Shown here in pieces: positions 3,275 through 30,381 of a DNA stretch of 60,590 nucleotides; position 1 is the first letter of the stretch, and each line of letters begins with the position of its first letter. The notes beneath the pieces are model-generated. The model was not told the DNA's origin, did no database searches, and worked only from the letters and a program-made list of their open reading frames with translations. The position numbers were made by a program, and so were the translations under genes. Source of the DNA: Gammaproteobacteria bacterium (GTDB lineage Bacteria; Pseudomonadota; Gammaproteobacteria; JBNLBB01); assembly GCA_050302415.1 (NCBI GenBank), contig JBNLBB010000001.1, positions 1 to 60,590 on the forward strand. The letters are read 5' to 3'.

Positions 3275-3322
3275 CTCTTCCTGGAGGCTTACAGTTTGCT
3301 CGCTGTTGGCTGAATTTGTTTA

Positions 3323-3868
3323 ATGAAAAAAACCATCCGCCGTTACATGCCGGATCCGCATAGTGTACGGCACCACAAGCACCTGAAAATATTCGGTTCC
3401 CTGATCCACGATCCCAATCTGTGGCACCTCAACCGTCGCTCCGTGTCCGGCGCTTTTGCCGTCGGACTGTTCATGATGTATGTGCCGGTGCCGTTTCAGA
3501 TGCTGCTGGCGGCAGCGGCGGCGATTCCGTTTCGGGTGAACCTGCCCATCTCCGTGGGGCTGGTCTGGATCAGCAACCCCATCACCATGCCGCCCATGTT
3601 CTACCTGGCCTATCGGGTCGGCGCACTGGTCCTGGGCGTGCCCACCTCGACGTTTACCTTCGAGCTCTCCTTCGACTGGCTGCTCAGCGAACTGACCCAC
3701 ATCTGGGAGCCATTCCTCTTGGGCTGCCTTATATTCGCCATCCTCTGTTCAGTCGCGGGCTACATCACCATGCGCATTCTTTGGCGGCTGCACATTCTGC
3801 AGAATATCCGCCGGCGTCGCGAGGCACGCAAGGCCCGCCAGGATCTGCTCAACCAGCGTTCTGATTGA
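3323..3868 (+). CDS. DUF2062-family membrane protein
   Basis: 181-aa ORF. The N-terminus (...[33 protein letters not shown]...) matches the DUF2062 pattern. Its 3' end overlaps the convergent lolD by 20 nt. Confidence 0.7.
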
Positions 3869-4538
3869 GCGTTCCCGCCTCCAGCACCCAGGTGCGATCC
3901 ATGCGCGCGGCCAACACAGGGTTGTGGGTCACCACCACGAAACTGGTCCGGGTCGCCTGATTGAGCTCCAGCATCAGTTCATACACCTCTTCCGCAGTCC
4001 GGCTGTCCAGGTTCCCTGTCGGTTCGTCGGCAAGGACACAGGCCGGCTGAGTCACCAGAGCCCTGGCGATGGCGGCACGCTGGCGTTCGCCACCCGACAG
4101 TTCACCGGGCTTGTGCCGCACCCGCTGCGCAAGTCCCACACGATCCAGAATCCCGCGTGCGGTATCCATGGCGACCGCGGTCGTTTCCCGCCGGATCATC
4201 AGCGGCATCGCCACGTTTTCCAGTGCGGTAAATTCGGGCAACAGATGGTGGAACTGGTAGACAAATCCCAGGCGGCGATTGCGCAATTCACCGCGCGCCC
4301 GCTCTCCCAGGCGACCCAAATCATTCCCCTCCAGCAAGACTTCGCCGCTGCTGGGCGCGTCCAGCCCCCCCAGCAAATGCAGCAGGGTGCTCTTGCCTGA
4401 GCCTGAGGCACCCACGATGGCCACGCGCTCGCCGCTGTTGACCACCAGATTGAGGTCATTGAACACCTCGGTATGCAGGCCGCCCTCGGCGTAGGTTTTA
4501 CCCAATTGGCGAGCTTCGAGTACCACCTGATCACTCAT
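3849..4538 (-). CDS. lolD: Lipoprotein-releasing system ATP-binding protein LolD
   Basis: 229-aa ABC ATPase with Walker [10 protein letters not shown] and signature LSGGERQR. It overlaps the upstream FtsX-type permease gene by 8 nt. Confidence 0.85.
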
Positions 4539-5775
4539 AGCGCAACGCCTCTGCCGGATGGGTGCGCGAAGCGCGAAGTGCGGGATAGATGGTTGCCAGC
4601 ACGGACAGTATGAATGCGGTGATGCTCACCTTCAGCACATCATCCAGGTGCAGATCCGACGGCAGCTTGCTGATGTAGTAGATGTCTCCCGGCAGAAACT
4701 GAATGCCGAACAGACGTTCGACGGCAGGAACGATGGTCTCGACGTTGAGCGCCAGCCCGATACCGCCAAGCAATCCCAGCAGGGTGCCTACCACACCGAT
4801 CAGGGTGCCCTGCACCATGAACACAGACATCACGCTGCCCGGACTCATGCCCAGCGTTCTCAGGACCGCAATGTCCGGCTGTTTATCGCTGACCATGATG
4901 ACCAGGGTGGAGACAATATTGAATGCGGCCACGGCGACGATCAGCAGGATGATGATGAACATGACCCGCTTTTCGGTCTTCAACGCCTTAAAGAAGTTGG
5001 CATGCTGGCGGGTCCAGTCGGAGATGAAATACCGGCCACTCAGTGACTGTGCCAGTTCGCGCACCACATAGGGCGCCTGAAACAGATCATCGAGCTTCAG
5101 GCGCACGCCGGTAACACCCTCCATGCGCAACAGTCGCGCGGCATCCTCCATGTGCACCATGACCAATCCGCGGTCGTATTCGTACATCCCGACTTCGAAG
5201 ATACCCACCACCGTGAACCGTTTGAGTCGCGGCAGGATGCCGGCCGGTGTGGTGGCGGCGTTCGGTGTCACCACCGTCACTTTGTCGCCAAGCTGCACAC
5301 CCAGCATGTAGGCCAGTTCCTGGCCTAACACAATGCCGAATCCGCCCGATTTGAGATCTTCAAGTTTCCCGGCCACCATCTTGTCTGCGACTTCCGCCAC
5401 CTTGCGCTCTTCGCCGGGCAGGATGCCTCTCAGGATGGTGCCGCTGACCACGTCGCCGGCAGTGGCCATCACCTCCGCCTGTATGTACGGCGCCACTTCC
5501 TGGATGCGGCCGTGTTCCCTGGCGCGTACTGCGACACCCTGCCAATCATTGAGTGGACCACCGTAGGCGCTGATAGTGGCATGCGAAGTCATGCCGAGGA
5601 TTCGCTCGCGCATTTCCTTTTCGAAGCCGTTCATTACAGACAATACCGTGATCAACGCCGTCACCCCCACCGCGATACCCAGCATGGAGATGAGAGAGAT
5701 GAAGGAGATAAAGTGGTTGCGCCGTTTGGCACGCGTATAGCGCAACCCGATAAAGAGCTCGAGCGGTCGAATCAT
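4531..5775 (-). CDS. Lipoprotein-releasing system permease, LolC/LolE/LolF family
   Basis: 414-aa MacB/FtsX-type permease: TM1, a large periplasmic loop, then three C-terminal TMs. It is the only such permease next to lolD in this window. Confidence 0.8.
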
Positions 5776-7118: not shown

Positions 7119-8423
7119 TCAGCCGAAGATGTCATTGGTAATATTGTTGAACCAGCTGTGGGCGTAACCCACTTCGCGGCGGCGATGTTCCGGACTGGCA
7201 TCCATGGGGGTCAGACCACCGGCTCCGGCAACTCCGGCAATGGCATCCTTCTCCGCGTTATACCGGTAGACCGCAGCCACGGAAATACCCCAGTCGTCAC
7301 CGACGATGCTGTAGCAGGTATTGATGTAGGACGGCGTACCCGGTTCCATGCCGTTGAGCATTGCGACGATGGCCGCTGCGCACACCTTGGCCTGGGAATT
7401 GGCGGAATATCCGGACTTGGGCATGGCGGTGGCCACACTTGCGTCACCCAGTACATGGATATTGGGCACCACCTTGGATTCGAAGGTGGTTTTGTTCACA
7501 GCGCACCAGTCACTGTCACCGGTAAGGCCGGCACCAAAAGCGATGGCACCCGCCTTCTGCGCCGGGATGATGTTCAACACATCAGCCTTCACCACGTCGC
7601 CGAATTCGGTGGTTACCGTACGGGTCTTGGCGTCGACTTTGACCACCCGACTGTCCGGACCCGGACGCCACTCGATCAGGCTGTTCGGCGTGTCATATCC
7701 ATACAGTGCTTTCCAGCCCTGCATAAACAGGCCCTGTTTTGAGAACTTCTGCTTCGCATCCAGGATAAGCACCTTGGATTTGGGTTTGTGCTTCTGCAGG
7801 TAGCTAGCGATCAGACTCGCCCGCTCATAGGGCCCGGGAGGACAACGGAACGGGTTGGGGGGCGGTGCGATGACCACGGTACCGCCATCATGCATCGCTT
7901 CGAGTTGGGCCCGTAGGGTGGCGGTCTGCGGACCAGCCTGCCAGGCATGCGGGATATCCTTGGCCACATTGGCATCGAGCCCTTCCACGGTTTCCCACTT
8001 GAAGTCGATGCCGGGGGCAACCACGCAGCGGTCGTAGCTGAATTTGTTGCCACCGGAGGTGGTCACGGTCCGTGCATTGGCATCGATACCGGTTACCGAC
8101 TCCGACACCACGTTCACACCGTGCTTCTTCAGGCCCTCGTAACCGAATCCGATGCTGTCCAGTTTACGGTCACCACCGATCACCTCGTTGCTCATGAAAC
8201 AGGTGTGATACTTCGCCTTCGGCTCGATCACCGTAACGTCGATGGACGGATCGGCCATCTTCAAGTACTTGGCAGTTGTGGTACCACCAATACCGCCACC
8301 GACCACTACCACCTTTTTCTTCATGTGTTTGGCAGCAAAACTTAGGGACGGGAGACCGGCCAGACCCACAGCCCCGGCAGCGCCTGAGGCTTTCAGAAAA
8401 TTTCTTCGCGTAAAATTCGCCAT
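7119..8423 (-). CDS. fccB: Flavocytochrome c sulfide dehydrogenase, flavoprotein subunit (FccB/SoxF type)
   Basis: 434-aa ORF with a Tat signal ([26 protein letters not shown]) and FAD fingerprint [10 protein letters not shown]. It sits immediately downstream of a dihaem cytochrome c gene. Confidence 0.85.
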
Positions 8424-8442: not shown

Positions 8443-9114
8443 CTACTTCTGGCTGGCGTAGTAATGAGCCAGTGCTTTCAGGTCGTCGGCGCTGAGCTTC
8501 TTCATCTTCGCCGCCATTTTCTTGGGCATCTTGCGGTGTTTGGCCGCAAAATCGTCAAGGGAATTCTGGACATACGGCATCCACTGACCTGCCAACAGTC
8601 CGACATCATCTTCACTGCTGCGACCGCCATCTTCATGGCACTTTTCACAGTGATTGTCGTGCAACCGGCGCCCTTTTTTCACCAGCGCCGAATCAGTGCT
8701 CTGGGCATGACGGATAAACTGTTTGCCGGCAAAGTATTCGGCCATGCTGGCGATCTCTTCGTCGGTGTATCCCTTCGCAATCCGGCTCATAATGGTGCTG
8801 GATCGCGGCAGCGCTTCGAATTCATCATCCGACAGCGGCATTTGGCTGACCGCCTTGGTGATGGCTTCTTCGTCGTCACCATATTTGTAGGCCATCATCG
8901 CAGCGATGAAATAGCCGCGTGACAGACCTGCAATGCCGGGCGTGGCAGGTCCCTGGCTGTTGCCTCCCGTACCGTGACAACCGGCACAGGTGTTGGACAA
9001 CATTTCCGAAGTGGCACCGGCGGCGTTCGCTGGCGCCGACAGGCCGATCATCGCCGTACTGGCTACCGCCAGACCGGCCACAACAAGCGCTTGTCGCAGT
9101 CTCTTGTACCCCAT
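8443..9114 (-). CDS. fccA: Flavocytochrome c sulfide dehydrogenase, dihaem cytochrome c subunit
   Basis: Two CxxCH motifs (CAGCH, CEKCH) and a Sec signal (...GLSAPANA). I place the start at the ATG at 9114, which is preceded by AGGGAGAAG, not at the ORF-track start 9168. Confidence 0.8.
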
Positions 9115-9244
9115 GACTTCTCCCTCTTGTTCTACCTCATTACGAGGCATTGACATTTTTAACATCAATCCGGACAGGTTTTGGAATCCCCCTGGACCGA
9201 TAGGAATTGCCGCTGTGTGACAACGCGCGGCGCCGTTGATCTAG

Positions 9245-9260
9245 TGCAACCCGCGTGCCA
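9245..9260 (-). promoter_or_regulatory. Candidate sigma-54 (-24/-12) promoter for fccAB
   Basis: The minus strand reads TGGCACGCGGGTTGCA (TGGCAC-N5-TTGCA) with canonical GG/GC spacing, about 130 nt upstream of the fccA ATG. Confidence 0.6.
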
Positions 9261-9330
9261 CCCTAAGAGAACAATTTTTTTCCAATTTATTCATTTGGTT
9301 AATGACCTTGCTCCCTTTGAGCCATACTGC

Positions 9331-9376
9331 CACTTTCTGCCAAACCTGCCTTCCGCACATGAAATGGCAGAAAGTG
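9331..9376 (-). promoter_or_regulatory. Perfect 11-bp inverted repeat: candidate enhancer (UAS) for the sigma-54 promoter, or a hairpin after the napC-like gene
   Basis: CACTTTCTGCC-N24-GGCAGAAAGTG. It lies 70-115 nt upstream of the -24 element and 6 nt after the stop of the tetrahaem cytochrome gene. No U-tract follows. Confidence 0.45.
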
Positions 9377-9381
9377 TCGTG

Positions 9382-9972
9382 TCAGGAATTGTCCGCCACG
9401 GACTCCTCTGGCGGATCCGGGACTTCGTGTGCCACCCCTCTGTGGCACTCGACGCAGGTTTGATTCTCTTCCACCGCACCCTTGTGCTTGCGCCGGGCCA
9501 AGCGGGCCTGGGATTCAAGCTCCATCGCGGTGAAGGAGTGACAGCTGCGGCAGGTGGCGGAATCGGTCCGCTCCATGAACCGCCAGACGCGGTTGGCCAT
9601 CTCCCACCGTTTGGCGGCAAATTTCTCCGGGGTATCCACGGTACCTATCAGGGTGTGCCAGACATCCTTGACGGCAATGACTTTGGCCACCAGTTTCGGA
9701 CCGAATGCTTTGGGAACATGGCAGTCGGGGCAACCGGCTCGAACACCCGATTTATTCACATAATGCAGTGACTCCTGGTACTCGGGATACATCGTATCCT
9801 TCATTTCATGACAGGAGATGCAGAACTCCATCGTGTCTGTCACGCCGATGAGTTTGACCGCCCCGCCAAACAGCAGCAGCACCGTGACCCCACCCACCAC
9901 CAGAAGGCTACCGACGGACCACTTGCCACTGGGTGTTCTCAGCCCGTTCCAGAGGCACCGAAATATGTTCAT
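9382..9972 (-). CDS. NapC/NirT/CymA-family membrane-anchored tetrahaem cytochrome c (quinol dehydrogenase type)
   Basis: 196-aa ORF with an N-terminal TM anchor and four CxxCH motifs (CISCH, CPDCH, CRSCH, CVECH), in the spacing and size typical of NapC/NirT. Confidence 0.8.
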   Translation of the reverse strand: MNIFRCLWNGLRTPSGKWSVGSLLVVGGVTVLLLFGGAVKLIGVTDTMEFCISCHEMKDTMYPEYQESLHYVNKSGVRAGCPDCHVPKAFGPKLVAKVIAVKDVWHTLIGTVDTPEKFAAKRWEMANRVWRFMERTDSATCRSCHSFTAMELESQARLARRKHKGAVEENQTCVECHRGVAHEVPDPPEESVADNS

Positions 9973-10173
9973 CTACTCCCCCATCGAAACCATATTTTTT
10001 GGACCTCTTGCTCTCCACCCTGACAATCTTCTTGCAGGGTGACTGCGGAGCTGAAGACCGGTGCATTACCCTACGCCTGTTGCACCAAATTTTCAGCACA
10101 GAGTACAGGTCCGGCGCGGTCGATGTTATATTTACTTAGGGATATCCCGAATAAGCGTGGTGAGGAGAGATTA

Positions 10174-10470
10174 GTGCGTTTGATCACTTTGTCGACTGGA
10201 GTGCAGACCGCCTTCGGCGCAGCACTGTTTCTCATCTCGAGCCTGTGCGCCGCCCAAAGCAGCCAGCCAGGCACGGAAAAGAACCTGACCATACCGCACC
10301 GCGGTGAATCCATGATGTCGGTTGAAAACCGTTTCGGGACCCCCACCGACAAGCTTGCCCCCATCGGCGAACCTCCCATCGCTCGTTGGGTGTACCCCGA
10401 ATTTACGGTCTATTTCGAGTACCAGTACGTCATCAATTACGTACCTCACGATAAGTACGGCAGTCGCTAG
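10174..10470 (+). CDS. Small secreted hypothetical protein
   Basis: GTG start preceded by GAGGAGAG. It has a signal peptide (...ALFLISSLCAAQS). I chose this shorter start over the 143-aa ORF-track version. Confidence 0.5.
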   Translation: MRLITLSTGVQTAFGAALFLISSLCAAQSSQPGTEKNLTIPHRGESMMSVENRFGTPTDKLAPIGEPPIARWVYPEFTVYFEYQYVINYVPHDKYGSR

Positions 10471-10529
10471 ACCGTCCTTCAAAATTCAGTGACTCACCGC
10501 GTTTGAGTCGCAGCCCGACGCTGTGATCG

Positions 10530-11597
10530 TTGACTATGCAATCCGATACAACTCTCCGCCTTCCCGCTGAGTGGGAACCGCAGCAGCAGGTGCTGCTGAC
10601 CTGGCCACGACGCGACGGAGACTGGGACGAGATTTTCGAACCGGCGGACCGCGCCTTTCTGACCATTGCCGGAGCGATCCGGAAGCGCTGCTCACTGACA
10701 GTCAGTTGCTCCACCCACGAGATGGCCCTTGAGGTGAACGAAAAATTGGCGGCCCAGGCCGAAGCACCCTTCCCTTACGCAGTTCATACGGTGCCCGCGA
10801 ACGATGTCTGGGTGAGAGACCATGGCCCCATTGGAATCTACCGGGCCGGGAAACTGGAGCTGTGTGATTTCAGATTCAACGGCTGGGGCAACAAATATCC
10901 CGCCAGTCTGGACGATGAGGTCAGCGCCCGACTGTATGCCCTGGGTACCTTTCAAACCACCCGCTTGCACCACGTGGATCATGTGCTGGAGGGCGGCGCC
11001 ATTGACTCAGACGGTCAGGGTACGCTCCTGACGACCACCCACTGCCTGCTGCGCCGGGAGGCGGGCAGCACCAAAGCCTATTGGGAGCAGCAGTTCAATA
11101 ATTGGTTTGGTATCAGCCGGGTTTTATGGCTGGATGATGGTGCCCTGATCGGTGACGATACCGACGGCCATGTAGATACCTTGGCGCGCTTCTGCGATAC
11201 CCGCACAATCACCTATACCAGTTGTGTGTTTGACGATGATCCGCATTTCGCTCCCCTGAAAATGATGGAATCACAACTGCGGAGCTTCACCACCACAGCG
11301 GGGAGCCCCTACCGGTTGTTGCCACTCCCGATTCCCAGATCGATCTACGATGACGACGGGCGGCGCCTGGCAGCCACCTATGCCAATTTCCTGATCACCA
11401 ACGGTGCGGTACTGGTCCCCACCTACGATGATGCGCATGACCGGATCGCACTGGAACAACTGGCGATCGCCTTCCCGGGGCATGAACTGGTGCCCATCGA
11501 CAGCAGGGCACTGATTCATCAGAACGGCAGCATCCACTGTGCCTCCATGCAGGTTCCGCAGCGCACCGAATCACTCGGGGAGTCGGAACACCAGTGA
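10530..11597 (+). CDS. aguA: Agmatine deiminase (peptidyl-arginine deiminase family)
   Basis: 355-aa ORF with N-terminal LPAEWEPQ..VLLTWP and the C-terminal catalytic-Cys region NGSIHCASMQVP, as in AguA. The true start may be the ATG at 10536. Confidence 0.85.
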   Translation: MTMQSDTTLRLPAEWEPQQQVLLTWPRRDGDWDEIFEPADRAFLTIAGAIRKRCSLTVSCSTHEMALEVNEKLAAQAEAPFPYAVHTVPANDVWVRDHGPIGIYRAGKLELCDFRFNGWGNKYPASLDDEVSARLYALGTFQTTRLHHVDHVLEGGAIDSDGQGTLLTTTHCLLRREAGSTKAYWEQQFNNWFGISRVLWLDDGALIGDDTDGHVDTLARFCDTRTITYTSCVFDDDPHFAPLKMMESQLRSFTTTAGSPYRLLPLPIPRSIYDDDGRRLAATYANFLITNGAVLVPTYDDAHDRIALEQLAIAFPGHELVPIDSRALIHQNGSIHCASMQVPQRTESLGESEHQ

Positions 11598-12365
11598 GGC
11601 CCAGAAGCTTTCCCACTGTGCATCCAGTTCCCTGGGCGCGGGAATCATATGGACGGACTTCACCAACCAGACTCCTGGCCCGTCGAGTGGAATCCTGACT
11701 TTTCCCTGTGCATCGGTTTTCACTCGGATGATCGCGTCGGGAGCCTCACGCCGGAAGGCGATCACCGTGGCATCGGGCAGCGCCGAATCAAGGTAGCGCA
11801 ACGTGACGTCGAGCTGCCCACCCGAACGCAGGGTGTATGGATCCTGGTCCGGCATAAGCTCGAGCGTCATCCCCGAATCCCAGGCGGGCGATACGCCGCC
11901 GCTCCCATCGCCAATGGTGACCAACAGTTTGGCGCAGCGCGAATAGTACTCGCGCGCCGGGGCACTATCCTGCCCGCGGTCACGCCGTAACTGCAGTATT
12001 TGGTCGAGCCCCTCATCCTCCAGATAGCTGGCAAACTTCGCTGGGCCAAGCTCAACAAAGTCCCGGGTACTGCGATAGATGACCATGGCCAGACCCTTGT
12101 CGGAAAACTTGATTCTGGCGGCCGGGTCATCCCCCATTTGCGACTTCACGGATTGCCGGCCGGCCGCATCAATCTGATCAAAAGCGGTAAACCAGTCGGT
12201 AATATAGGGTAGCGTTTCGCCTTTCAACCGCTGCCCCTGATAGAGCTGCACGCTGACCTCCTGGTGCGTTGGCGCCGCAAACCGATCCGCCTCCAGCCAA
12301 AAATCATGGGCCCTGACCACTCCGGCGCAGAGCACACAACCAAGTACGCAAACTAGTTTCCACAT
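11571..12365 (-). CDS. DUF4198-family periplasmic protein (putative Ni/Co-uptake accessory component)
   Basis: Start moved to the ATG at 12365: MWKLVCVLGCVLCAGVVRAHDFWLE..., a signal peptide followed by the HDFW motif typical of DUF4198. Its 3' end overlaps aguA by 27 nt (convergent). Confidence 0.65.
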   Translation of the reverse strand: MWKLVCVLGCVLCAGVVRAHDFWLEADRFAAPTHQEVSVQLYQGQRLKGETLPYITDWFTAFDQIDAAGRQSVKSQMGDDPAARIKFSDKGLAMVIYRSTRDFVELGPAKFASYLEDEGLDQILQLRRDRGQDSAPAREYYSRCAKLLVTIGDGSGGVSPAWDSGMTLELMPDQDPYTLRSGGQLDVTLRYLDSALPDATVIAFRREAPDAIIRVKTDAQGKVRIPLDGPGVWLVKSVHMIPAPRELDAQWESFWASLVFRLPE

Positions 12366-12434
12366 GATTGTCTGACCACCGTTTCCTGTTGACGGGCAAT
12401 GATACGATAGCGCCCGCACCCATGAGCGACACCG

Positions 12435-13565
12435 ATGCGGCACCGAATACTTTCCCTCCTGTTGCTGTGCACACTGCTGTGGAGTACAGCCGGCACAGCC
12501 CACCCACTGCGCCCGGCAGTCGTCACCCTCACCCCGGGCGATGACGCGGTCTTGGACGTTTCGATCCAGGCCAATTTTGAAGCGTGGATTGCCGGTATCA
12601 GTGCCGGCCACGACGACACTCGTGATGCTCCACAGGCTGAACAGTACGATCAACTGCGTCAATTGCCCGCAGAAGCATTGGCATCCAGGATTGAAGAATT
12701 TCTGCCCAGACTGCTGGCTGGAGTGGAGATAGATGCCGGGGGAACTCCCGTGTCATTGAAGCTGGTCCGGGTGGATGTCCCTCCCGTGGGCGACACGGGT
12801 TACGCGCGCCTCAGCACACTGATTCTGGCCGGAGCGCTGCCCCCTGATGCGACCTGGCTGACCTGGCGCCTGGCGGGGATCTGGGGGAACAATGTACTGC
12901 GCGTGAAGAAACCGGGTGTCGACGATCCCACCCACTCGGAGTGGCTGAAGGACGGGGCGGCCAGTACCGCGCTCCCCCTGGATCGCACGGTGCAACCCGT
13001 TTCACGGTGGGCAACAGCGGTCACCTACCTGTGGCTGGGTCTGACCCATATCGTTCCCCTGGGTGCGGATCATATTCTTTTTGTGCTCGGAATTTTTCTG
13101 CTCAGCCAGCACTGGTCACCACTTTTGTGGCAGGTGACCGCGTTCACCCTGGCTCACTCCATTACTCTCGGCCTGTCGATGTACGGTGTGATGTCGCTCT
13201 CGCCCTCGGTAGTGGAGTCCCTGATCGCCCTCTCGATTGTTTATATCGGTATCGAAAATCTGGTGGCACGCACCCTCAAACCCTGGCGTATCGCAGTGGT
13301 ATTCTGTTTTGGACTGCTGCATGGACTTGGTTTCGCAGGCGTGCTGACAGAGATCGGTCTGCCCCGCTCGGAGTTCGCCACCGCCCTGATCACCTTCAAT
13401 GTGGGGGTTGAGCTGGGCCAGTTGACGGTGATTGGCGGGGCCTGGGTAGTGCTCGTGGCCTGGCAACATCAACGCCCATGGTACCGGTCGCGGGTCATCC
13501 TCCCGGTTTCCGCGCTGATTGCCTGCGTTGGCCTTTTCTGGACCGTGCAACGAATGTTTTTCTGA
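12435..13565 (+). CDS. HupE/UreJ-family metal transporter with a roughly 190-aa N-terminal periplasmic extension
   Basis: 376-aa ORF with a signal peptide. The C-terminal half has the HupE/UreJ signature GLTHIVPLGADHILFVLG plus further TMs (HSITLG, LLHGLGFAG). Confidence 0.7.
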   Translation: MRHRILSLLLLCTLLWSTAGTAHPLRPAVVTLTPGDDAVLDVSIQANFEAWIAGISAGHDDTRDAPQAEQYDQLRQLPAEALASRIEEFLPRLLAGVEIDAGGTPVSLKLVRVDVPPVGDTGYARLSTLILAGALPPDATWLTWRLAGIWGNNVLRVKKPGVDDPTHSEWLKDGAASTALPLDRTVQPVSRWATAVTYLWLGLTHIVPLGADHILFVLGIFLLSQHWSPLLWQVTAFTLAHSITLGLSMYGVMSLSPSVVESLIALSIVYIGIENLVARTLKPWRIAVVFCFGLLHGLGFAGVLTEIGLPRSEFATALITFNVGVELGQLTVIGGAWVVLVAWQHQRPWYRSRVILPVSALIACVGLFWTVQRMFF

Positions 13566-13649
13566 CAGTTGCAGCACCTTGGCCGTGCGTTGTACAACAC
13601 CTTCTGCTCCACCCTGCCCATATCCACGACTTCACCTGAAACGAGATTC

Positions 13650-14561
13650 ATGCAAAAGATACCCGATCAGATTTCCGTTGCCCTGGTACAGCAGGCCAGT
13701 CGGCAGACTACCGAAGACAACCTGAACCACACGGTTGATCAAATCCGTCAGGCCGCCCGGTCCGGGGCGCAGTTGGTTGTACTGCAGGAGTTGCACTGTT
13801 CCCCCTACTTCTGTCAGGTCCAGGACACCGCCAATTTTGACCTGGCGGAATCGATCCCGGGACCCACCACCGGGCGGCTCTCCCAGGTTGCGGCCGAATC
13901 CGGAGTGGTGCTGGTGGCATCCCTGTTCGAACGTCGGGCCAGGGGGCTCTATCACAACACGGCTGTGGTCATTGAACGGGACGGATCCCTGGCAGGCATC
14001 TACCGAAAGATGCATATCCCTCAGGATCCCGGGTTTGAGGAGAAATTCTATTTCACCCCCGGTGATCTGGGATTCCATCCCATCCGCACCAGTATCGGCA
14101 CGCTGGGCGTGCTCGTCTGCTGGGATCAATGGTATCCGGAGGCCGCCCGACTGATGGCCCTGCGCGGCGCCGACCTGCTGATCTACCCCACCGCCATCGG
14201 CTGGGACCCGGCTGACGGCAATGAGGAACAGCAGCGTCAGCTGGACGCCTGGGTGACCGTGCAACGGGGGCACGCCGTGGCCAATGGCATCCACGTCCTC
14301 ACCTGCAACCGAACCGGCACGGAGGCTGCCGCCCGTGGCACCGGGGCAATCCGGTTTTGGGGCAACAGTTTCGTGACCGGCCCGCAGGGAGAGCTGCTGG
14401 CCGTAGCGCCCCAGGAAGAAGAGACCATTCTGCGTGCCACGATCAGTCTGCAACGCGCCGAGTCGGTGCGACGGATCTGGCCATTTTTCCGGGACCGCAG
14501 AATTGACGCCTACGGTGACATTGTCAGGCGCCATGTCGACGATACGCCTCAGGGCACCTGA
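13650..14561 (+). CDS. aguB: N-carbamoylputrescine amidase (CN-hydrolase family)
   Basis: Start moved to the ATG at 13650 (MQKIPDQISVALVQQ...). Nitrilase-superfamily motifs are present (VLQELH, YRKMHIP, LVCWDQWYPE with the catalytic Cys). Confidence 0.85.
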   Translation: MQKIPDQISVALVQQASRQTTEDNLNHTVDQIRQAARSGAQLVVLQELHCSPYFCQVQDTANFDLAESIPGPTTGRLSQVAAESGVVLVASLFERRARGLYHNTAVVIERDGSLAGIYRKMHIPQDPGFEEKFYFTPGDLGFHPIRTSIGTLGVLVCWDQWYPEAARLMALRGADLLIYPTAIGWDPADGNEEQQRQLDAWVTVQRGHAVANGIHVLTCNRTGTEAAARGTGAIRFWGNSFVTGPQGELLAVAPQEEETILRATISLQRAESVRRIWPFFRDRRIDAYGDIVRRHVDDTPQGT

Positions 14562-15598: not shown

Positions 15599-15747
15599 CA
15601 TTTCCTGGCCCCACCATCGCTCCTTGGCCTCATTCCGTCTAAGCCCTATACTTTTGGGGTCGCTTGCACACAATAATGTCAAGAATAAGAATGGGTAGCC
15701 GCCGCAATCTGTTGCGCGCACCCCCGCCACAGAGGGTCATCCACACC

Positions 15748-17946
15748 ATGAACACGCTGCACTCCACCACCAGGCGTGGCCACACCATTCGCGTGGTCTG
15801 GGGACCACAGCGGTTTTACCTGTCCATTGGCTGGAAAACGCTCATCGCCTTTTTCCTGGTTGTCTTTGTGCCCATGCTTGGCCTGATGCAAATCACAGGG
15901 AGCACCATCCGCGATGGCATGGAATCCGAAGCACTCAAATCCCTGGCTGTCAGTATGCGCGGGTCGTGGAGCATCTATTTTGAGCGCATCGACCGGTTGA
16001 CCAACGACTTTGAACTCTCCGCGACCGAACCCGGTCTCGCCGCGGCCATACAGTCCAGAAATGAAGATGCGTTGAGCACCCTGCTCAACCGGATATCCAC
16101 CCATCTTCCCTATGCCGATGTCCTGCTGCTGGTTGACCGGGACCGCAAAGTGATGGCCAGACGCTCTGGTCCGGCCGGCGACCGGGTGTACGTCAATAAC
16201 CTGATTACCCGGGCGGTGGAACGGGGACAGGCGGTCACCAGTTCGGAATTGCTGCCACGTGATCTCTTCCTCAATGAAGACCCGCTGCGCTACGGCGGTT
16301 TGAGCCAGTCAATCCTCGCGCAGGTATCGGTTGTGCCCATCAAGGATGGAGACGAGGTGACTGGCGCATTTCTGGGCCTCATTCTGCTCAATGGCAACGC
16401 CTGGCTCTCCAATTCGGTACACGACAACCTGAGTGTCGATGCCGCCATCTTCAGCTCCGTCGTCCAGGAGAGTCAGGTGATTTCGACGGCCTACCGGGTC
16501 AGCAATATCTGGGCGGAAGGGGTGATGGCGCCGGCCCCGCTGAATGCGGCGATCAAACGCCGCGAATCGTTCAGCGGTCATATCCGGGTCAACGACATCC
16601 CCAGTCTGGTGATCGCCGAACCCATCATGAACCACCAGAAACAGCCGATCGGCGCCCTGGCCCTGGGTGTGCGCGACGAACATATCGAGCTGCTGATCCA
16701 GCGGAACAAGAGCAACGTCTACTTGTTCATAGCCATTGGCATCGGGCTGTCGCTGATCATTGCCTACCTGGCCTATCGCGACACCGTCACCCCGATCCGC
16801 GCCATGGTGGAGGCCATGGATGCCTTCGCCAACAATCAACTGGGCGTGCGCACCGAAATCCGCACCAAGGACGAGTTCGAGCAGTTGGGCGATGGCTTCA
16901 ACCGGATGGCCGAATCGGTGGAAGAGCACCAGCAACGCATGGAGAAGTTCAATACCCTGTCGAGTCTGCTCATCTCCACCCTCAACCCACGGCAATTGCT
17001 GCAGAAGACCCTGGACAAGGTGGTGGAGCTCACCAAAGGCCGAGTCGGCGTCATCTATCTGCATGACAAGAACTCGGGCACCCTGCAGCCATTCGTCACC
17101 AACGGAATCGACATCAAAAAACTGCCGGCGCTGGATATCGGCGAAGGACTGCCCGGCCAGGCCGCAGAACAGAAACGCCTGTTGCGGATCGACGGCGTCG
17201 ACAGCGATACCCGCATTGTGATCAATTTCGGCATCGTCACTGCGGTACCCAAGGAGATTCTGGCGGCCCCTCTCGTCTTCAAGGATGAGCTGCTGGGCGT
17301 CATGCTGTTGGGCAGCACCCAGCAATTGCACGAAGACGAGCTTCCCGCCATTGAGTACATGACCAACCAGATTGCGATTGTGCTGGAAAACGCGCTGACG
17401 CACGAAAAGCTGGAGCTCTACTCCGTCACCGATGCGCTCACCGGGCTCTACAATCGCCGTTATCTGAGCCAGCGCCTGGATCACGAATTCTCCAAGGCGC
17501 AGCGCTACGGCTACGACCTGTCACTGATGATTCTGGACCTGGATCACTTCAAGAATATCAACGACAAGTTTGGGCATCTGGCCGGCGATTCGGTACTCAT
17601 TTCCGTGGCCCGGCTGCTGCGCAACTGTTTCCGGGAGACTGATCTGGTGGGACGCTACGGTGGTGAGGAGTTTTTTGTTATTCTGCCCCACACCAACCAG
17701 GAGCAGGCCAAGTATTCGGCTGAAAAACTGAGATCGCAACTGGCCGAACTGGCGATTGATGCCATCGGCGGTGGCGTCGTGACCACCTCAATCGGCGTCG
17801 CGAGTTTTCCGGAATCGGGCATTCACGTATTGGATGAACTGGTGCGCCGGGCCGACAACGCACTCTACGCAGCGAAGGAACAGGGGCGTAATTGTGTGGT
17901 GCAGGCCCAGGCACCGAGTCAGTCGACGGAACTCTCGTCTGCCTGA
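15748..17946 (+). CDS. Membrane sensor diguanylate cyclase (periplasmic sensor, HAMP, GAF, GGDEF)
   Basis: Two TMs flank a roughly 290-aa periplasmic domain, followed by a HAMP region, a GAF-like region and a GGDEF domain with an intact GGEEF and an RxxD I-site (RETD). The start is uncertain (15664-15748). Confidence 0.85.
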   Translation: MNTLHSTTRRGHTIRVVWGPQRFYLSIGWKTLIAFFLVVFVPMLGLMQITGSTIRDGMESEALKSLAVSMRGSWSIYFERIDRLTNDFELSATEPGLAAAIQSRNEDALSTLLNRISTHLPYADVLLLVDRDRKVMARRSGPAGDRVYVNNLITRAVERGQAVTSSELLPRDLFLNEDPLRYGGLSQSILAQVSVVPIKDGDEVTGAFLGLILLNGNAWLSNSVHDNLSVDAAIFSSVVQESQVISTAYRVSNIWAEGVMAPAPLNAAIKRRESFSGHIRVNDIPSLVIAEPIMNHQKQPIGALALGVRDEHIELLIQRNKSNVYLFIAIGIGLSLIIAYLAYRDTVTPIRAMVEAMDAFANNQLGVRTEIRTKDEFEQLGDGFNRMAESVEEHQQRMEKFNTLSSLLISTLNPRQLLQKTLDKVVELTKGRVGVIYLHDKNSGTLQPFVTNGIDIKKLPALDIGEGLPGQAAEQKRLLRIDGVDSDTRIVINFGIVTAVPKEILAAPLVFKDELLGVMLLGSTQQLHEDELPAIEYMTNQIAIVLENALTHEKLELYSVTDALTGLYNRRYLSQRLDHEFSKAQRYGYDLSLMILDLDHFKNINDKFGHLAGDSVLISVARLLRNCFRETDLVGRYGGEEFFVILPHTNQEQAKYSAEKLRSQLAELAIDAIGGGVVTTSIGVASFPESGIHVLDELVRRADNALYAAKEQGRNCVVQAQAPSQSTELSSA

Positions 17947-19310
17947 TTCCGCAATTTCTGCACGTAGCGGTAGAGCGTCCGCTCACTGATACCCAATTCG
18001 TGGGCAGTGCGGGCACGATGGCCTTTGTGCCGCGCCAGCGCCTGAAGAATCTGCTGTTCAGACTGGCGTGCACCGCGCCGGTGGATGAGATTGCGCTCCA
18101 CGCCGATTCCGGTTTTGACCATCGGTGCCTCCGCCTCATTGGGCTCAAACACCAAGTGGGTCACGTCCATGGCATCGCCCCCGGCAAGGATTACCGCGCG
18201 TTCCACGACATTGCGTAATTCGCGGACATTTCCCGGATAGTCATAACCCAACAGCTGTTCAATCAGATAGGGCGCCAGCGGCAGATGGCGGTCACCATCG
18301 TCCATGCGCGCAATGAAGTGTTCCGCCAGGGCCGGAATGTCATCCACCCTGTCACGCAGCGGCGGCACCTCCACGGGAAAAGCGGAGAGCCGGTAGTAGA
18401 GATCCTGCCGGAACTCCTTGCGGCGCGAGAGCGCGGCCAGATCCCGGTGGGTGGCGGCCACGATCCGCACGTTCACGCGGATGTATTCCGTGCCACCGAT
18501 GCGGCGGATGGTTCCGGATTCCAGGACCCGCAGCAGTTTGGTCTGGGCAGCCAGGGGCATTTCCCCGATTTCGTCGATAAACAGGGTCCCCTCGTTGGCC
18601 GCTTCAATCAGCCCCTTCTTGCGGCCGGCGGCGCCGGTAAATGCCCCCTTCTCGTACCCAAACAGCTCGCTCTCAATCAAATTGTGATCCAGTGAGGCGC
18701 AGTCGACGATCATGAACGGACCGTTGGACCGCCGGGAGTACTGGTGGAGATAGTTGGCCATGCACTCCTTGCCCACTCCACTCTCGCCCAACAGCAGCAC
18801 CGTGGTGGAGGTGGGCGCCACCCGCTGGAGCAGACTGATCATGCGGCGAAAGGCATGTGAGCGCCCGACCAGCTGCGGATCTTCGCCATCCGGTGCCTGA
18901 ATGGCATTGATGTACTCCCCCATATACATCACCTCGCCGGTGGCACCCAGCAGCGGATTGGCCTGTATCTGAACGTATTCGGGTTTGTCTTCCTTGTCGT
19001 AGTGGACGTGGATCAGCTGCACCGGTTGTCCTTTGGTGAACACCGCCTCCAGGGGGCAATGTTCGCCATGGTGATGGCAGGGAGATTCCGAATGGTGGCT
19101 TACCTCGTAGCAGTGGCGTCCGACCACGTCTTCGCCGGAGACCTGGTAGCGCTCCTTGTAGCTGCGGTTGGCGGCGATGATCCGGTATTCGCGGTCTATG
19201 ACCACGAAAGGATCAGGCATGATGTTGATGATTTGCTCGCAGGATGGCGCCTGCAGATGTGAACTCGTCACTGTCCCCTCCCCCGAAAATCCGTTCATAT
19301 GATACGTCAT
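17919..19310 (-). CDS. Sigma-54-dependent transcriptional activator (bEBP) with a Cys/His-rich PAS-like sensor domain
   Basis: Walker A GESGVGKE, the GAFTGA loop and a C-terminal Fis-type HTH are present. The sensor region contains RHCYEVSHHSESPCHHHGEHCPLE. I prefer the ATG at 19310 (AGGGAA upstream); the ORF track starts at 19376. Confidence 0.85.
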   Translation of the reverse strand: MTYHMNGFSGEGTVTSSHLQAPSCEQIINIMPDPFVVIDREYRIIAANRSYKERYQVSGEDVVGRHCYEVSHHSESPCHHHGEHCPLEAVFTKGQPVQLIHVHYDKEDKPEYVQIQANPLLGATGEVMYMGEYINAIQAPDGEDPQLVGRSHAFRRMISLLQRVAPTSTTVLLLGESGVGKECMANYLHQYSRRSNGPFMIVDCASLDHNLIESELFGYEKGAFTGAAGRKKGLIEAANEGTLFIDEIGEMPLAAQTKLLRVLESGTIRRIGGTEYIRVNVRIVAATHRDLAALSRRKEFRQDLYYRLSAFPVEVPPLRDRVDDIPALAEHFIARMDDGDRHLPLAPYLIEQLLGYDYPGNVRELRNVVERAVILAGGDAMDVTHLVFEPNEAEAPMVKTGIGVERNLIHRRGARQSEQQILQALARHKGHRARTAHELGISERTLYRYVQKLRNQADESSVD

Positions 19311-19614
19311 GACATTCCCTGTCACGACTGCCATCATGCCGTCTATCCCCGCTGCTGTCAAAATGGCTAACTGCATGGCAGTAAAGCGATTTGCCGCGGT
19401 CGGAACCCCTCCTTTCCACGGGTCGTCAGCCTGGTTTCACGGACCGCTGGAGGCTTGCTGCGCTGCTCCGTGCCAGCCCGGTCGGTAATAGACAGGACAT
19501 GCCGGTTGTGGATAATGGTCACCGTTTCAGCGTCCGGGCCAATCGACTTCCGGCTCCCAAGCCACTCTGTCACGGCCATCAATCCGAATCACAAGAATTT
19601 CGCGGAGGCTCCGC

Positions 19615-21024
19615 TTGATACGCAAGATCGCTCTACCAGGCCTGGCTACTCTCCTCTTTCCCGGAATCGCATCGGCGAGCGAAGGGGCAATCAACCTCAC
19701 CCAGAGCAGTATCGGCTATCTTTCGCTGCTGATATTTGCCATTGCCTATGCGCTGGTGATGGCGGAGGAGTTCACCCACCTGCGCAAGTCCAAGCCGGTG
19801 ATTCTGGCGGCGGGTATCATCTGGGCCATGATCGCCGCCTATTACGCGGCGCAGGGCGATGCGCACGCCGCCGAAATCGCGGTGCGCCACAACATTCTTG
19901 AATACGCCGAACTGATGCTGTTCCTGCTGGTGGCGATGACCTATATCAACAGCATCGACGAACGCAACGTCTTTGACGTGCTGCGGGTCTGGCTGATCAA
20001 CCGGGGATTCGGACTGCGCAAACTCTTCTGGATGACCGGTTTGCTGGCCTTTTTCATCTCCCCGGTCGCCGACAATCTCACCACAGCCCTCTTGATGTGC
20101 GCCGTAGTGCTAGCGGTGGGGGCCGGCAATCCCAAGTTCATTGCGCTCGGATGCATCAATATTGTGGTTGCCGCCAACGCGGGGGGCGCCTTCAGTCCCT
20201 TCGGCGACATCACCACGCTGATGGTCTGGCAGAAAGGGATCATCGGTTTCTGGACCTTCTTCCTGTTGTTTGTCCCCTCCGTGGTGAATTGGCTGGTACC
20301 GGCAGCCATCATGCACTTTGCGGTACCCGACATGATGCCGCACAACACCAACGAAGTGGTGCACCTGCGCCGGGGTGCGCGGCGGATCATCGCGCTCTTT
20401 CTCTGCACCATCGCCACCGCGGTGAGCTTTCACAATTTTCTACACCTGCCGCCGGTGCTCGGCATGATGACCGGCCTGGCCTATCTGCAGATATTCGGCT
20501 TCTACCTGAAGAAAACCCGCCACTTGGACGCACCGGGCGATACCGTCACCGAAGAGGAGCACAGCGACATCGGCGAGGTGGTCTCCTTCGATATTTTCAA
20601 CCAGGTCGCTCGCGCCGAGTGGGACACCCTGCTCTTCTTCTACGGCGTGGTGGTCTGCGTGGGCGGGCTTGGATTCATCGGCTATCTGGAGCTGGCATCA
20701 CAGTTCATGTACACCGATCTGGGACCGACCGCCGCCAACGTGCTGGTTGGCGTCCTGTCGGCCATCGTGGACAACATTCCTGTGATGTTTGCCGTGCTGA
20801 CCATGAATCCGGACATGTCCCAGGGACAGTGGCTGCTGGTGACCCTGACGGCGGGGGTTGGCGGCAGCATGTTGTCCATTGGCTCCGCCGCCGGCGTGGC
20901 GCTCATGGGCATGGCGCGCGGCTACTACACGTTCTTCAGCCATCTGCGCTGGCTGCCCGCCATTGCACTGGGTTATGCCCTGAGCGTGCTGGTCCACCTG
21001 TGGATCAATTCAGCGCTCTTCTGA
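19615..21024 (+). CDS. nhaD: NhaD-type Na+/H+ antiporter (ArsB/NhaD permease superfamily)
   Basis: 469-aa polytopic ORF (TTG start in the track), NhaD-like throughout (e.g. ...SPVADNLTTALLM..., ...SAIVDNIPVM...). Confidence 0.8.
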   Translation: MIRKIALPGLATLLFPGIASASEGAINLTQSSIGYLSLLIFAIAYALVMAEEFTHLRKSKPVILAAGIIWAMIAAYYAAQGDAHAAEIAVRHNILEYAELMLFLLVAMTYINSIDERNVFDVLRVWLINRGFGLRKLFWMTGLLAFFISPVADNLTTALLMCAVVLAVGAGNPKFIALGCINIVVAANAGGAFSPFGDITTLMVWQKGIIGFWTFFLLFVPSVVNWLVPAAIMHFAVPDMMPHNTNEVVHLRRGARRIIALFLCTIATAVSFHNFLHLPPVLGMMTGLAYLQIFGFYLKKTRHLDAPGDTVTEEEHSDIGEVVSFDIFNQVARAEWDTLLFFYGVVVCVGGLGFIGYLELASQFMYTDLGPTAANVLVGVLSAIVDNIPVMFAVLTMNPDMSQGQWLLVTLTAGVGGSMLSIGSAAGVALMGMARGYYTFFSHLRWLPAIALGYALSVLVHLWINSALF

Positions 21025-29394: not shown

Positions 29395-30381
29395 TCAGGC
29401 GGCTGCAGCCAGAACAAAAAGCCCAAACTGTTGTTGGGAATCGGTGAGCAAATCCACGCCACGGTAGCCCGCTGTCGCCGCCAGGGCAAGAAACTCCTCG
29501 GGTGCATACTTGTACGAGTTCTCTGTGTGGAGTGTCTCTCCTGCAGCCAACTCGATGCGCTCGCCGGCCACCTCCATGGTCTGTTCGTGAACACTGCGCA
29601 AATGCATTTCGATCCGCCCCATCTGCCGGTTGTAAAAGGCGACATGTTCAAACGCCTCGGTGTCGATGGAGGCGTCCAGACGCTGGTTGATATGCTCCAG
29701 AATATTGAGATTGAAACGGGCGGTCACGCCGGCTGAGTCATTGTAGGCATCGTGGAGTACCGCAGTATCTTTTTTCAGATCCACGCCGATCAGCATCAGG
29801 CCGTTGTGCCGAAGATGGGGCCTCACGTTCTCCAACAGCCCCACCGCGTCGGGGGGTGAAAAATTGCCAATGGTGGATCCCGGAAAAAATACCAGGGTCT
29901 GGGCACCATTGAGCACACCGGTCAGATGGAGTTCACGGGTGAAATCGGCACATACCGCATGGACCTCCAATTGGGGAAAATCCTGTTGCACCGAGAGGGC
30001 ATTGGTGAGCAGGTGTTCCCTGGATATGTCCACCGGCACGTAGCGATCCGCATTGACCGCCTGCAGCAATGCCCGGATTTTGCGGTTGCTGCCGCTGCCC
30101 AGCTCCAGCACCGTCACCTCGTCGGCTACCAGCTTGGCGATCCGATCCTTTTGCTCCTGGAGAATCGAGATTTCGGTGCGGGTGATGTAATACTCCGGCA
30201 GCTCGCAGATCTGATCAAAAAGCTCGGAGCCGGTGGCGTCGTAGAAAAGAAACGAGGGCAGCCTCTTCTGCTCCCGCGCCAGACCCCGCAGGACACTCCT
30301 ACGGACATCCTCGGTGGCGGGATTGAGGTCGTGGAAGTAGAACGGCGCCGTGGTGGTTTCGGTCTCTGTAAATTGATCCAT
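29395..30381 (-). CDS. EgtD-like SAM-dependent histidine N-alpha-methyltransferase (Methyltransf_33 family)
   Basis: 328-aa ORF alignable by eye along its length to mycobacterial EgtD (FLFYDATGSELFDQICELPEYYITRTE; LELGSGS; FFPGSTIGNF; DSAGVTARFNLN; ENSYKY). Its stop is 9 nt before the response regulator start. Confidence 0.8.
   Translation of the reverse strand: MDQFTETETTTAPFYFHDLNPATEDVRRSVLRGLAREQKRLPSFLFYDATGSELFDQICELPEYYITRTEISILQEQKDRIAKLVADEVTVLELGSGSNRKIRALLQAVNADRYVPVDISREHLLTNALSVQQDFPQLEVHAVCADFTRELHLTGVLNGAQTLVFFPGSTIGNFSPPDAVGLLENVRPHLRHNGLMLIGVDLKKDTAVLHDAYNDSAGVTARFNLNILEHINQRLDASIDTEAFEHVAFYNRQMGRIEMHLRSVHEQTMEVAGERIELAAGETLHTENSYKYAPEEFLALAATAGYRGVDLLTDSQQQFGLFVLAAAA

Follow-up and report, generated by a model that had tools for sequence, protein, structure and literature searches.

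A FisR-family sigma-54 activator with a conserved cysteine triad and its predicted control of flavocytochrome c sulfide dehydrogenase genes

The reference for the FisR family is the regulator of Cupriavidus pinatubonensis JMP134 (Li et al. 2017, Mol Microbiol 105:373; sequences P0124, P0125 and P0127). It has three sensing Cys residues, and a tetrasulfide is formed between C53 and C64 (PMC9495516, PMC9774590, PMC12754779). Sulfane sulfur causes di- to tetrasulfide cross-links between these Cys residues and raises the ATPase activity of the protein (PMC9495516, PMC9774590, PMC12170894). FisR of Acinetobacter baumannii (A1S_1707) is also a sigma-54 activator of a sulfide-induced sulfide-oxidation operon, pdo-sqr-tauE; it works without these Cys, an observation that speaks against Cys sensing (PMC7315123). 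Two PAS-containing proteins are also relevant. NreB of Bacillus licheniformis senses sulfide and controls sqr-pdo (PMC13478379), while OrpR of Desulfovibrio vulgaris has its AAA+ domain under negative control by the PAS domain (PMC8359166). The induction of SQR and flavocytochrome c in chemolithotrophic sulfur oxidisers is poorly known, and we here assign to it a concrete candidate regulator, together with a predicted enhancer and promoter.

We analysed a 60,590-nucleotide stretch of DNA (the window, referring to its whole length), which encodes a single enhancer-binding protein (EBP). The longest ORF of this gene spans 17919..19376 on the minus strand and gives 485 aa from the first ATG (at 19376). 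The GTG at 19271 (codon 36 of this ORF) is probably the true start, which would place the gene at 17919..19271 with a product of 450 aa. GGGGGAGGGG-ACA directly precedes this GTG, and a GGAGG-type Shine-Dalgarno sequence is located just 5' of it, at 19275-19284. The NCBI-called product (P0001) is also 450 aa long and 100% identical to the window protein, and the homologues start 8-10 aa ahead of 'KPSCEQ'. An earlier sequence-only reading of the same DNA had taken 17919-19376 as the gene; the minus-strand ORF stands, but its start is likelier to be the GTG.

Pfam searches with the 485-aa ORF detected PAS_4 (aa 53-153, 5e-15), Sigma54_activat (aa 169-335, 9e-67), AAA_lid_14 and HTH_8 (aa 441-470, 6.6e-9, or about 7e-9). 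On the minus strand, these define a PAS sensor (R) domain at 18918..19238, an AAA+ sigma-54 interaction domain at 18372..18872 with the Walker A motif GESGVGKE (aa 197) and the GAFTGA loop (aa 244), and a Fis-type helix-turn-helix DNA-binding domain at 17967..18056, for which the C-terminal alignment gave the clade consensus GHRA.AA..LGvSERTLYRY. The protein thus has the three domains of the FisR-family bEBPs, and Pfam and motifs uphold the earlier call of a sigma-54 activator. The AF2 model of the sensor (pLDDT 89.5) has the canonical PAS topology, and Foldseek with this domain returned only generic PAS/LOV/NifL/FixL matches. All NCBIfam EBP equivalogs (NifA, NorR, NtrC and others) scored far under their cut-offs; NCBIfam contains no FisR HMM. 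A two-component response regulator of the NtrC/AtoC type was rejected, as the N-terminus is a PAS domain and Pfam gave no Response_reg match. The JGI names 'response regulator AtoC' are therefore misleading.

The sensor motif RHCYEVSHHSESPCHHHGEHCPLE is encoded at 19047..19118 (minus strand; aa 87-110 of the 485-aa ORF), and it contains three Cys with +11/+7 spacing amid seven His, as had been noticed before. The three Cys are encoded at 19110-19112, 19077-19079 and 19056-19058 and correspond to C89/C100/C107 of the 485-aa ORF in a C-x10-C-x6-C arrangement. With the GTG start, these become C54/C65/C72, one residue off the FisR numbering. The positions 53, 64 and 71 given earlier for the FisR sensor Cys were correct, both from the literature and from the two proteins named 'sigma 54-dependent transcription regulator FisR [Cupriavidus pinatubonensis]' at NCBI (P0124, P0125). 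The window protein is 43% identical to C. pinatubonensis FisR over 426 aa (BLASTP, E 5e-119). The sensor stretch is ungapped in the alignment with P0124, and because of this C54/C65/C72 pair exactly with C53/C64/C71. In a MAFFT alignment with the FisR orthologue of C. metallidurans CH34, the Cys triad occupied the same columns, and S58, H59, P64, G69, E70, P73, H88 and H90 were common to both proteins. The sensor alone, used as query, matched this orthologue with 35% identity (E 1e-19); the homology to FisR, therefore, spans the sensor domain as well as the generic AAA+ core.

A relative is encoded in 202 species genomes. The Cys triad was kept in all of the 120 closest homologues (120/120), and it was invariant in both our alignments (A1 and A2). 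Judged from these sequence comparisons, the conservation of the Cys motif is far beyond chance, and the protein is a new member of the already known FisR family.

The sigma-54 (-24/-12) promoter TGGCACGCGGGTTGCA is located at 9245..9260 on the minus strand, 77 bp 5' of the fccA ORF start. It is the sole zero-mismatch sigma-54 match in the 60-kb window, in agreement with the earlier claim that the only strong sigma-54 promoter of the window precedes fccAB. No sigma-70-like promoter was found in 9100-10600. The predicted targets are fccA (8443..9168, minus strand; Pfam Cytochrome_CBB3 and Cytochrom_C), which encodes the dihaem cytochrome c subunit of flavocytochrome c sulfide dehydrogenase, and fccB (7119..8423, minus strand; Pfam FCSD_central 7e-53, FCSD-flav_bind 3e-29 and TAT_signal), which encodes the flavoprotein subunit with a TAT signal. 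A napC/nirT-type tetrahaem cytochrome gene (9382..9972, minus strand; Pfam Cytochrom_NNT 2e-65) lies 5' of the promoter. It belongs to a conserved napC-fccAB cluster, and the same cluster adjoins the regulator at three other loci (L045, L052, L053).

A putative enhancer (UAS) with the half-sites CTGACA, CTGCCA, TGGCAG and TGGCAG is present at 9327..9380 (minus strand), 75-115 bp upstream of the fccA sigma-54 promoter. It includes the inverted repeat reported earlier at 9331-9376, which proved to be real: CACTTTCTGCCA-N22-TGGCAGAAAGTG, with perfect 12-nt arms (9331-9342 and 9365-9376, 100% complementary) 22 nt apart. This is the densest TG[GT]CAG cluster of the window, and an equal density arose in 1 of 100 simulations, for a half-site motif originally picked out from the window. 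The same half-sites are found 5' of fcc promoters in four other genomes, and two Cupriavidus FisR loci have TGGCAG/CTGCCA ∼100-125 bp 5' of their pdo promoters. The most enriched 6-mers in a set of 57 UAS zones from outside the window were TGACAG and TGTCAG. The sqr promoters were enriched for these two and not for TGGCAG, and such half-sites were present in only about 12-22 of the 53 sqr UAS zones. TGGCAG is similar to the -24 element itself.

The regulator clade comprises sulfur-oxidising Gammaproteobacteria. The expected co-occurrence of the regulator with sigma-54-driven sulfide-oxidation genes was borne out in this clade. A type I sqr is located directly upstream of the regulator in 56 of the 70 informative loci (adjoining SQR versus A. 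ferrooxidans SQR, 1e-162), and a -24/-12 element precedes the start of nearly every such sqr gene by 55-110 bp. At four loci fccB-fccA directly adjoins the regulator, three of them with napC, and a sigma-54 promoter precedes each cluster. Dozens of genomes, including those of symbionts and Thiohalomonadaceae, keep a FisR-type sensor beside sigma-54-driven sqr or fccAB. Within the sqr-linked clade, the regulators that adjoin fcc are polyphyletic, and fcc and sqr appear to be interchangeable targets. As comparative evidence, this linkage and the shared half-sites support the suggestion that the regulator could drive fccAB from a distance.

In other genomes, the regulator adjoins its presumed target. 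In the window, it is separated from fccAB by 9 kb and nine unrelated genes. The modal target of the clade is sqr, rhodanese genes occur at 29 of its loci, and neither gene is found within the window. The real target could, therefore, be outside the window, for instance an sqr or rhodanese operon, with the fccA promoter served by another EBP; further EBPs, or an sqr preceded by a sigma-54 promoter of its own, may be encoded in the rest of the genome. The inverted repeat would then be a 3' hairpin of napC. It lies directly 3' of the napC stop, its RNA folds into a stable hairpin (-24.9 kcal/mol, z -3.2), and it could be such a structure. However, this hairpin is not followed by a U-tract, and terminator prediction gave no call at this position; half-sites are also present 5' of an fcc promoter that no napC precedes (L006), as well as 5' of napC itself (L045, L052, L053). 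Given that the only EBP and the only strong sigma-54 promoter of the window are the regulator and that of fccA, and that the regulator adjoins fcc in four other genomes, we consider a target outside the window unlikely.

The genes next to the regulator were also considered as targets, in which case it would answer an ionic, metal or redox cue. An nhaD-like (CitMHS) transporter gene (19615..21024, plus strand; Pfam CitMHS) is divergent from it across a 343-bp intergenic region, and a GGDEF gene is convergent. The same nhaD arrangement is present in one other genome (L075; NhaD 74% identical), but nhaD is absent from beside the regulator in 79 of the 80 other loci, and the intergenic region (19272-19614) has neither a sigma-54 site nor a half-site cluster. 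The convergent GGDEF gene cannot share a promoter region with the regulator. Control of either neighbour is hence highly improbable, and nhaD is probably not the target. Since the co-localisation occurs at only 1 of the 80 other loci and nhaD has no sigma-54 promoter, it does not refute the assignment to fccAB, which survives this comparison.

We, therefore, favour, with reasonable though far from full confidence, a circuit in which a FisR-family EBP senses sulfur through the Cys triad of its PAS domain and switches on fccAB from the promoter at 9245-9260. C54, C65 and C72 would line the PAS pocket, and, if the protein works like C. pinatubonensis FisR, they would be modified by sulfane sulfur derived from sulfide (persulfide or polysulfide). 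This modification would lift the inhibition of the AAA+ ATPase. The activated oligomer would bind the CTGCCA/TGGCAG inverted-repeat enhancer at 9327-9380, loop over the AT-rich spacer and remodel the sigma-54 RNA polymerase at 9245-9260. In this way fccAB would be switched on, and the periplasmic sulfide dehydrogenase would be made in the presence of sulfide.

The density of His around the Cys triad had earlier suggested metal binding instead. The majority of the His within RHCYEVSHHSESPCHHHGEHCPLE are lineage-specific, which speaks against this suggestion. H59, H71, H88 and H90 (450-aa numbering), two of which fall outside RHCYEVSHHSESPCHHHGEHCPLE, are conserved in the window clade and recur in the CH34 FisR orthologue, and they speak for it. 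A thiol switch alone leaves three to four invariant His beside the Cys unexplained. The Cys motif of FisR belongs to a wider Cys3His3 PAS signature, G-x2-C-[YH]-x2-[ST]-H-x4-P-C-x6-C ... H-x-H, which thousands of hybrid sensors and histidine kinases carry, often as tandem copies; this raises the question of cofactor-based sensing. Over 148 module copies from diverse sensor kinases, the core was C0, H+5 (93%), P+10, C+11, C+18, H+34 (89%) and H+36 (90%). As thousands of sensor kinases share the sensor motif in its Cys3His3 form, a cofactor (metal or Fe-S) may be involved, as in NreB and OrpR.

The circuit would then be the same, with Cys3(+His) in the PAS pocket binding a metal or an Fe-S cluster at which sulfide, persulfide or redox is sensed. 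The conserved ligand-type residues exceed the need of a dithiol switch, C54 is in the column of the photoactive, pocket-facing Cys of LOV domains, and AF2 places the Cys on E-alpha, the extra helix and the start of F-alpha, with the His pair on G-beta. The cluster motif of S. carnosus NreB is CX2CX11CX2C. Neither this nor CX2CX11C nor C52/C61/C65 was found in the window protein, which has C-x10-C-x6-C instead, and solved PAS Fe-S proteins were matched neither by sequence comparison nor by Foldseek. Precedents for such a centre are NreB (PMC13478379) and OrpR (PMC8359166), but their spacings (CX2CX11C and C52/C61/C65, respectively) are unlike that of the triad. Moreover, the FisR publications describe di- and tetrasulfide Cys links without a cofactor (PMC9495516, PMC9774590), and the module has neither a solved structure nor spectroscopy. 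We regard a cofactor in this protein as possible but doubtful, and we hold just as tentatively the broader idea that the FisR-type sensor is one case of a very large and virtually unstudied group of Cys3His3 PAS modules, in which sulfide, sulfane sulfur or redox state is sensed at a metal or Fe-S centre. If this idea is true, the thiol-only FisR model would be incomplete, and a class of environmental sulfide/redox sensors would be recognisable from sequence.

Compared with the known systems, the window protein resembles B. licheniformis NreB, whose PAS sensor likewise has just three conserved Cys; NreB, however, is a histidine kinase with a CX2CX11C motif, which binds a [2Fe-2S] cluster that has a labile sulfur as ligand (PMC13478379), and no sequence similarity of the window sensor to it was detected. 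D. vulgaris OrpR is likewise an EBP for sigma-54, and its N-terminal PAS domain has three conserved Cys from near residue 52, but these are C52/C61/C65, hold a [4Fe-4S] cluster and sense redox potential, and the orp operons are regulated (PMC8359166). A. baumannii FisR, lacking the triad, presumably senses by a different mechanism from that of the window protein (PMC7315123). Cupriavidus FisR differs in several respects. It divergently adjoins pdo-sqr (whose SQR is of type II and is fused to a phosphatase-like domain), whereas fccAB, the predicted target here, is 9 kb off; it serves detoxification in a heterotroph, whereas the window clade consists of chemolithotrophic sulfur oxidisers, usually with type I sqr and rhodanese; it lacks the fourth conserved Cys of the window clade (KPSCEQ); and a long branch sets the two clades apart. 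In other respects the two proteins are alike. Both have the R(PAS)-AAA+-HTH architecture, with 43% full-length identity, C53/64/71 against C54/65/72, and flanking S-H, P-C, G-E-H-C-P and H-x-H. The Cupriavidus enhancer is CTGCCA/TGGCAG ∼100 bp upstream of -24, as at fccA, and the sulfide-oxidising operon under its sigma-54 promoter has its predicted counterpart here in fccAB.

The regulator is encoded on the minus strand by the ORF at 17919-19376, which has 485 aa counted from the first ATG. Pfam assigns to it PAS_4 (aa 53-153 of the ORF), Sigma54_activat (aa 169-335; 9e-67), AAA_lid_14 and HTH_8 (aa 441-470), and the motifs GESGVGKE and GAFTGA begin at aa 197 and aa 244, respectively. The sensor stretch, RHCYEVSHHSESPCHHHGEHCPLE (aa 87-110), holds seven histidines and has cysteines at 89, 100 and 107 (spacing +11 and +7). 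These domains, motifs and positions confirmed the sequence-only reading, which had described a sigma-54 activator with such a sensor. The actual start codon is probably the GTG at 19271, because GGGGGAGGGG-ACA directly precedes this codon, the NCBI product for the contig (P0001) has 450 aa, and the homologues start 8-10 residues ahead of a conserved 'KPSCEQ'. From this start, the sensor cysteines are C54, C65 and C72. 'KPSCEQ' contributes a fourth cysteine (window 19239-19241; Cys46 of the ORF and C11 of the 450-aa protein), situated on the N-cap helix; it is invariant across the gammaproteobacterial clade, absent from FisR, and replaced by Tyr in the nhaD-linked relative L075. The regulator gene shares its last 28 bp (17919-17946) with a convergent dCache-HAMP-GAF-GGDEF gene on the plus strand (15664-17946). 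Many clade members are named 'two-component system response regulator AtoC' by JGI despite having no receiver domain. We ruled out this reading for the window protein, which also lacks the domain, and the name seems to be misapplied systematically.

A tblastn search with the sensor only revealed a homologue on the megaplasmid of C. metallidurans CH34, divergent from pdo and sqr. When this homologue was used as query, we obtained P0124 and P0125, both bearing the NCBI name 'sigma 54-dependent transcription regulator FisR [Cupriavidus pinatubonensis]'. Their cysteines are at 53, 64 and 71, positions that we took from the NCBI-named FisR sequences and secondary literature. The locus of another FisR of this species, P0127, has the published layout, with pdo-sqr divergent from fisR and tauE downstream. 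In BLASTP, the window protein matched P0124 with an E value of 5e-119 and 43% identity across 426 aa. The sensor stretch is aligned without a gap, and therefore C54/C65/C72 pair with C53/C64/C71; the FisR spacing given in the sequence-only reading is thereby confirmed, as is its match to that of the regulator. The invariant residues that the window clade shares with the CH34 FisR orthologue further include S58, H59, P64, G69, E70, P73, H88 and H90. We found no FisR-specific HMM in NCBIfam, so no curated cut-off is applicable to the regulator. FisR detects reactive sulfur species with its three conserved cysteines, which become joined by disulfide and tetrasulfide links (PMC9774590; PMC12754779); in C. 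pinatubonensis FisR, the tetrasulfide is between Cys53 and Cys64 (PMC9495516). The ATPase activity is raised as a result (PMC12170894). Judged from sequence comparison, it is probable that the regulator is a FisR-family sensor controlling sulfide oxidation. In the literature searched, we found no paper on this clade or its connection with sqr or fccAB.

The AF2 model of the sensor, read from its secondary structure and pLDDT, is confident (pLDDT 89.5, pTM 0.82) and has a canonical PAS fold. In this model, C54 opens E-alpha, C65 sits on a short additional helix, C72 comes just ahead of F-alpha, and G-beta carries H88 and H90; the pocket-facing photoactive Cys of LOV domains aligns with C54. Foldseek and sequence searches of the PDB for a relative with the Cys cluster returned only generic PAS/LOV/NifL/FixL folds, the Foldseek matches being generic PAS domains of ≤20% identity.

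We searched 1.84 billion representative proteins with a sensor profile, which yielded 15,845 matches at E ≤ 1e-3, of which 5,270 reached E ≤ 1e-10. C-x10-C-x6-C was present in 136 of the best 150 of the 15,845 matches, and most of these 150 are multi-PAS histidine kinases, often with the module twice. Over 148 copies of the module, the core reads G-3, C0, H+5 (93%), P+10, C+11, C+18, H+34 (89%) and H+36 (90%). The C-x10-C-x6-C PAS module with His at +5/+34/+36, at 18918-19238 in the window, is widespread in multi-PAS histidine and hybrid kinases (proteins P0241-P0390), and FisR appears to be its only studied bearer. Of the seven histidines in the stretch, whose density had been put forward from the sequence as a possible sign of metal binding, H59 and H71 alone are conserved; two more conserved histidines, H88 and H90, lie outside it. 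Cofactor-based sensing at this Cys3His3 site is a possible, though less probable, alternative to thiol chemistry. The signature itself leaves room for it, as do the three-Cys PAS sensors NreB, which senses sulfide with a [2Fe-2S] cluster (PMC13478379), and OrpR, which has a [4Fe-4S] cluster (PMC8359166). However, the cysteine spacings of both differ from that of the window regulator, and thiol cross-links were reported in the FisR studies.

The 120 closest homologues (58-69% identity) all retain the three cysteines and come from sulfur-oxidising Gammaproteobacteria (Solemya symbiont, Thiohalobacter, Thiohalomonadaceae, Acidiferrobacteraceae). When one genome per species was scanned, relatives turned up in 202 genomes, and the gene neighbourhoods were analysed for 80 loci from these. 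Among the 70 loci having ≥1.5 kb of upstream sequence, 56 carry a gene for a 424-aa flavoprotein immediately upstream of the regulator on the same strand. This is a type I sulfide:quinone reductase (A. ferrooxidans SQR structures, 1e-162, full length). Nearly all of these sqr genes have a TGGCAY-N5-xTGCW element 55-110 bp ahead of their start, and rhodanese genes are located downstream in 29 loci. A further 'cluster 6' from ORF clustering was spurious: direct tblastn identified it as an ORF antisense to sqr. Many loci have a small conserved membrane-protein ORF (MNWLD...PEPHL...DIFDL; L003:8318-8551, with equivalents in L062, L061, L051, L082, L077, L079 and L071) just ahead of the sqr sigma-54 promoter.

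Four loci (L006, L045, L052 and L053) have fccB-fccA, not sqr, convergent immediately behind the regulator, and the last three also have napC, as in the napC-fccAB cluster of the window. Each of these clusters follows a sigma-54 promoter, which is located ahead of napC in the three loci with that gene and ahead of fccA in L006. In the neighbour-joining tree, a long branch divides the whole clade from FisR. Since the fcc-linked regulators are polyphyletic inside the sqr-linked clade, a single family of regulators seems to have sqr and fccAB as interchangeable targets. An fccAB-linked EBP of Thioalkalivibrio was rejected as a member, being of the two-component type. On a Pseudoalteromonas xiamenensis plasmid (NZ_CP099918.1), cydP-cydAB-cydX is divergent from the gene of an EBP (L002:6007-7320) that shares the sensor motif (RCYEVSHHVNEPCDKQGEQCP...HIH). 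In A. baumannii, sulfide is reported to up-regulate CydAB, which is itself refractory to sulfide (PMC7315123), and the cyd genes beside the L002 EBP hint at a third kind of target.

The surroundings of the regulator (935-5775 and 10530-14561) are syntenic with Thiohalobacter thiocyanaticus (L005), whose regulator gene follows sqr, including genes for an agmatine deiminase-like protein, a CN-hydrolase, a lolCDE-like ABC transporter, DUF2062 and comEC; compared to L005, the window lacks sqr and rhodanese and has napC-fccAB. Also present are a Crp/Fnr-family regulator gene followed by one for a 68-aa YgaP-like transmembrane protein (PF11127; 14577-15548), and an EgtD-like histidine-specific methyltransferase (PF10017, 5e-109; 29395-30381) adjoining an OmpR-type two-component system.

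The regulator is the only EBP in the window, where we found neither rpoN nor any sqr-like or rhodanese gene. The window's one perfect sigma-54 promoter match, TGGCACGCGGGTTGCA (9245-9260, minus strand), lies 77 bp upstream of fccA (8443-9168), bearing out the earlier claim that the sole strong promoter of this class precedes fccAB; around it, neither a sigma-70-like promoter nor a terminator was called. In this window (9245-9972, from the promoter through napC) it is located between napC and fccA, whereas L045, L052 and L053 have the promoter upstream of napC, then a gene of ~320 aa, missing here, and then fccA-fccB. A perfect 12-bp inverted repeat, CACTTTCTGCCA-N22-TGGCAGAAAGTG (9331-9342 and 9365-9376), precedes the -24 element by 75-115 bp and is situated inside the window's densest TG[GT]CAG cluster. 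This cluster (4 sites in 54 bp) is a unique maximum, and its density was attained in 1 of 100 simulations. The stop codon of napC (9382) is immediately followed by the repeat, whose RNA would fold into a stable hairpin (-24.9 kcal/mol, z -3.2). The absence of a U-tract rules out a classical intrinsic terminator, and the repeat may also serve as a 3' structure of napC.

The same half-sites recur at corresponding positions in other loci, 60-120 bp upstream of the four other fcc promoters. Two Cupriavidus FisR-pdo promoter regions carry them as CTGCCA...CTGCCA-ag-TGGCAG, ~100-125 bp upstream of TGGCACG(A/G)GTTTTGA. As 8-mer enrichment was swamped by lineage-specific intergenic words, an analysis of 6-mers with the window excluded was more informative; in 57 upstream enhancer zones the top words were TGACAG (z 17) and TGTCAG (z 11). 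The half-sites peak at -100 to -175 relative to the -24 element and are present in only a minority of the sqr zones. The G variant, TGGCAG, was first sighted in the window itself and is similar to the -24 box. These half-sites and the gene neighbourhoods support the proposal, made earlier, of a sulfide sensor driving fccAB, and we modestly favour fccAB as the regulator's target in this genome, acting through a putative enhancer at 9327-9380. The divergent neighbour nhaD (19615-21024) was ruled out as a target: its intergenic region with the regulator showed no sigma-54 element or half-site cluster, and nhaD lies beside the regulator in only one other locus, L075. Hence the consistent co-localisation with nhaD that would have spoken against fccAB was not observed.

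In its architecture, its cysteine triad and its homology through the sensor, which are the testable defining features, the regulator is like the Cupriavidus-type FisR. Unlike FisR, its clade belongs to a chemolithotroph lineage and has the additional clade-specific C11, and its presumed targets are type I sqr or fccAB, in contrast to the pdo-sqr genes of FisR.
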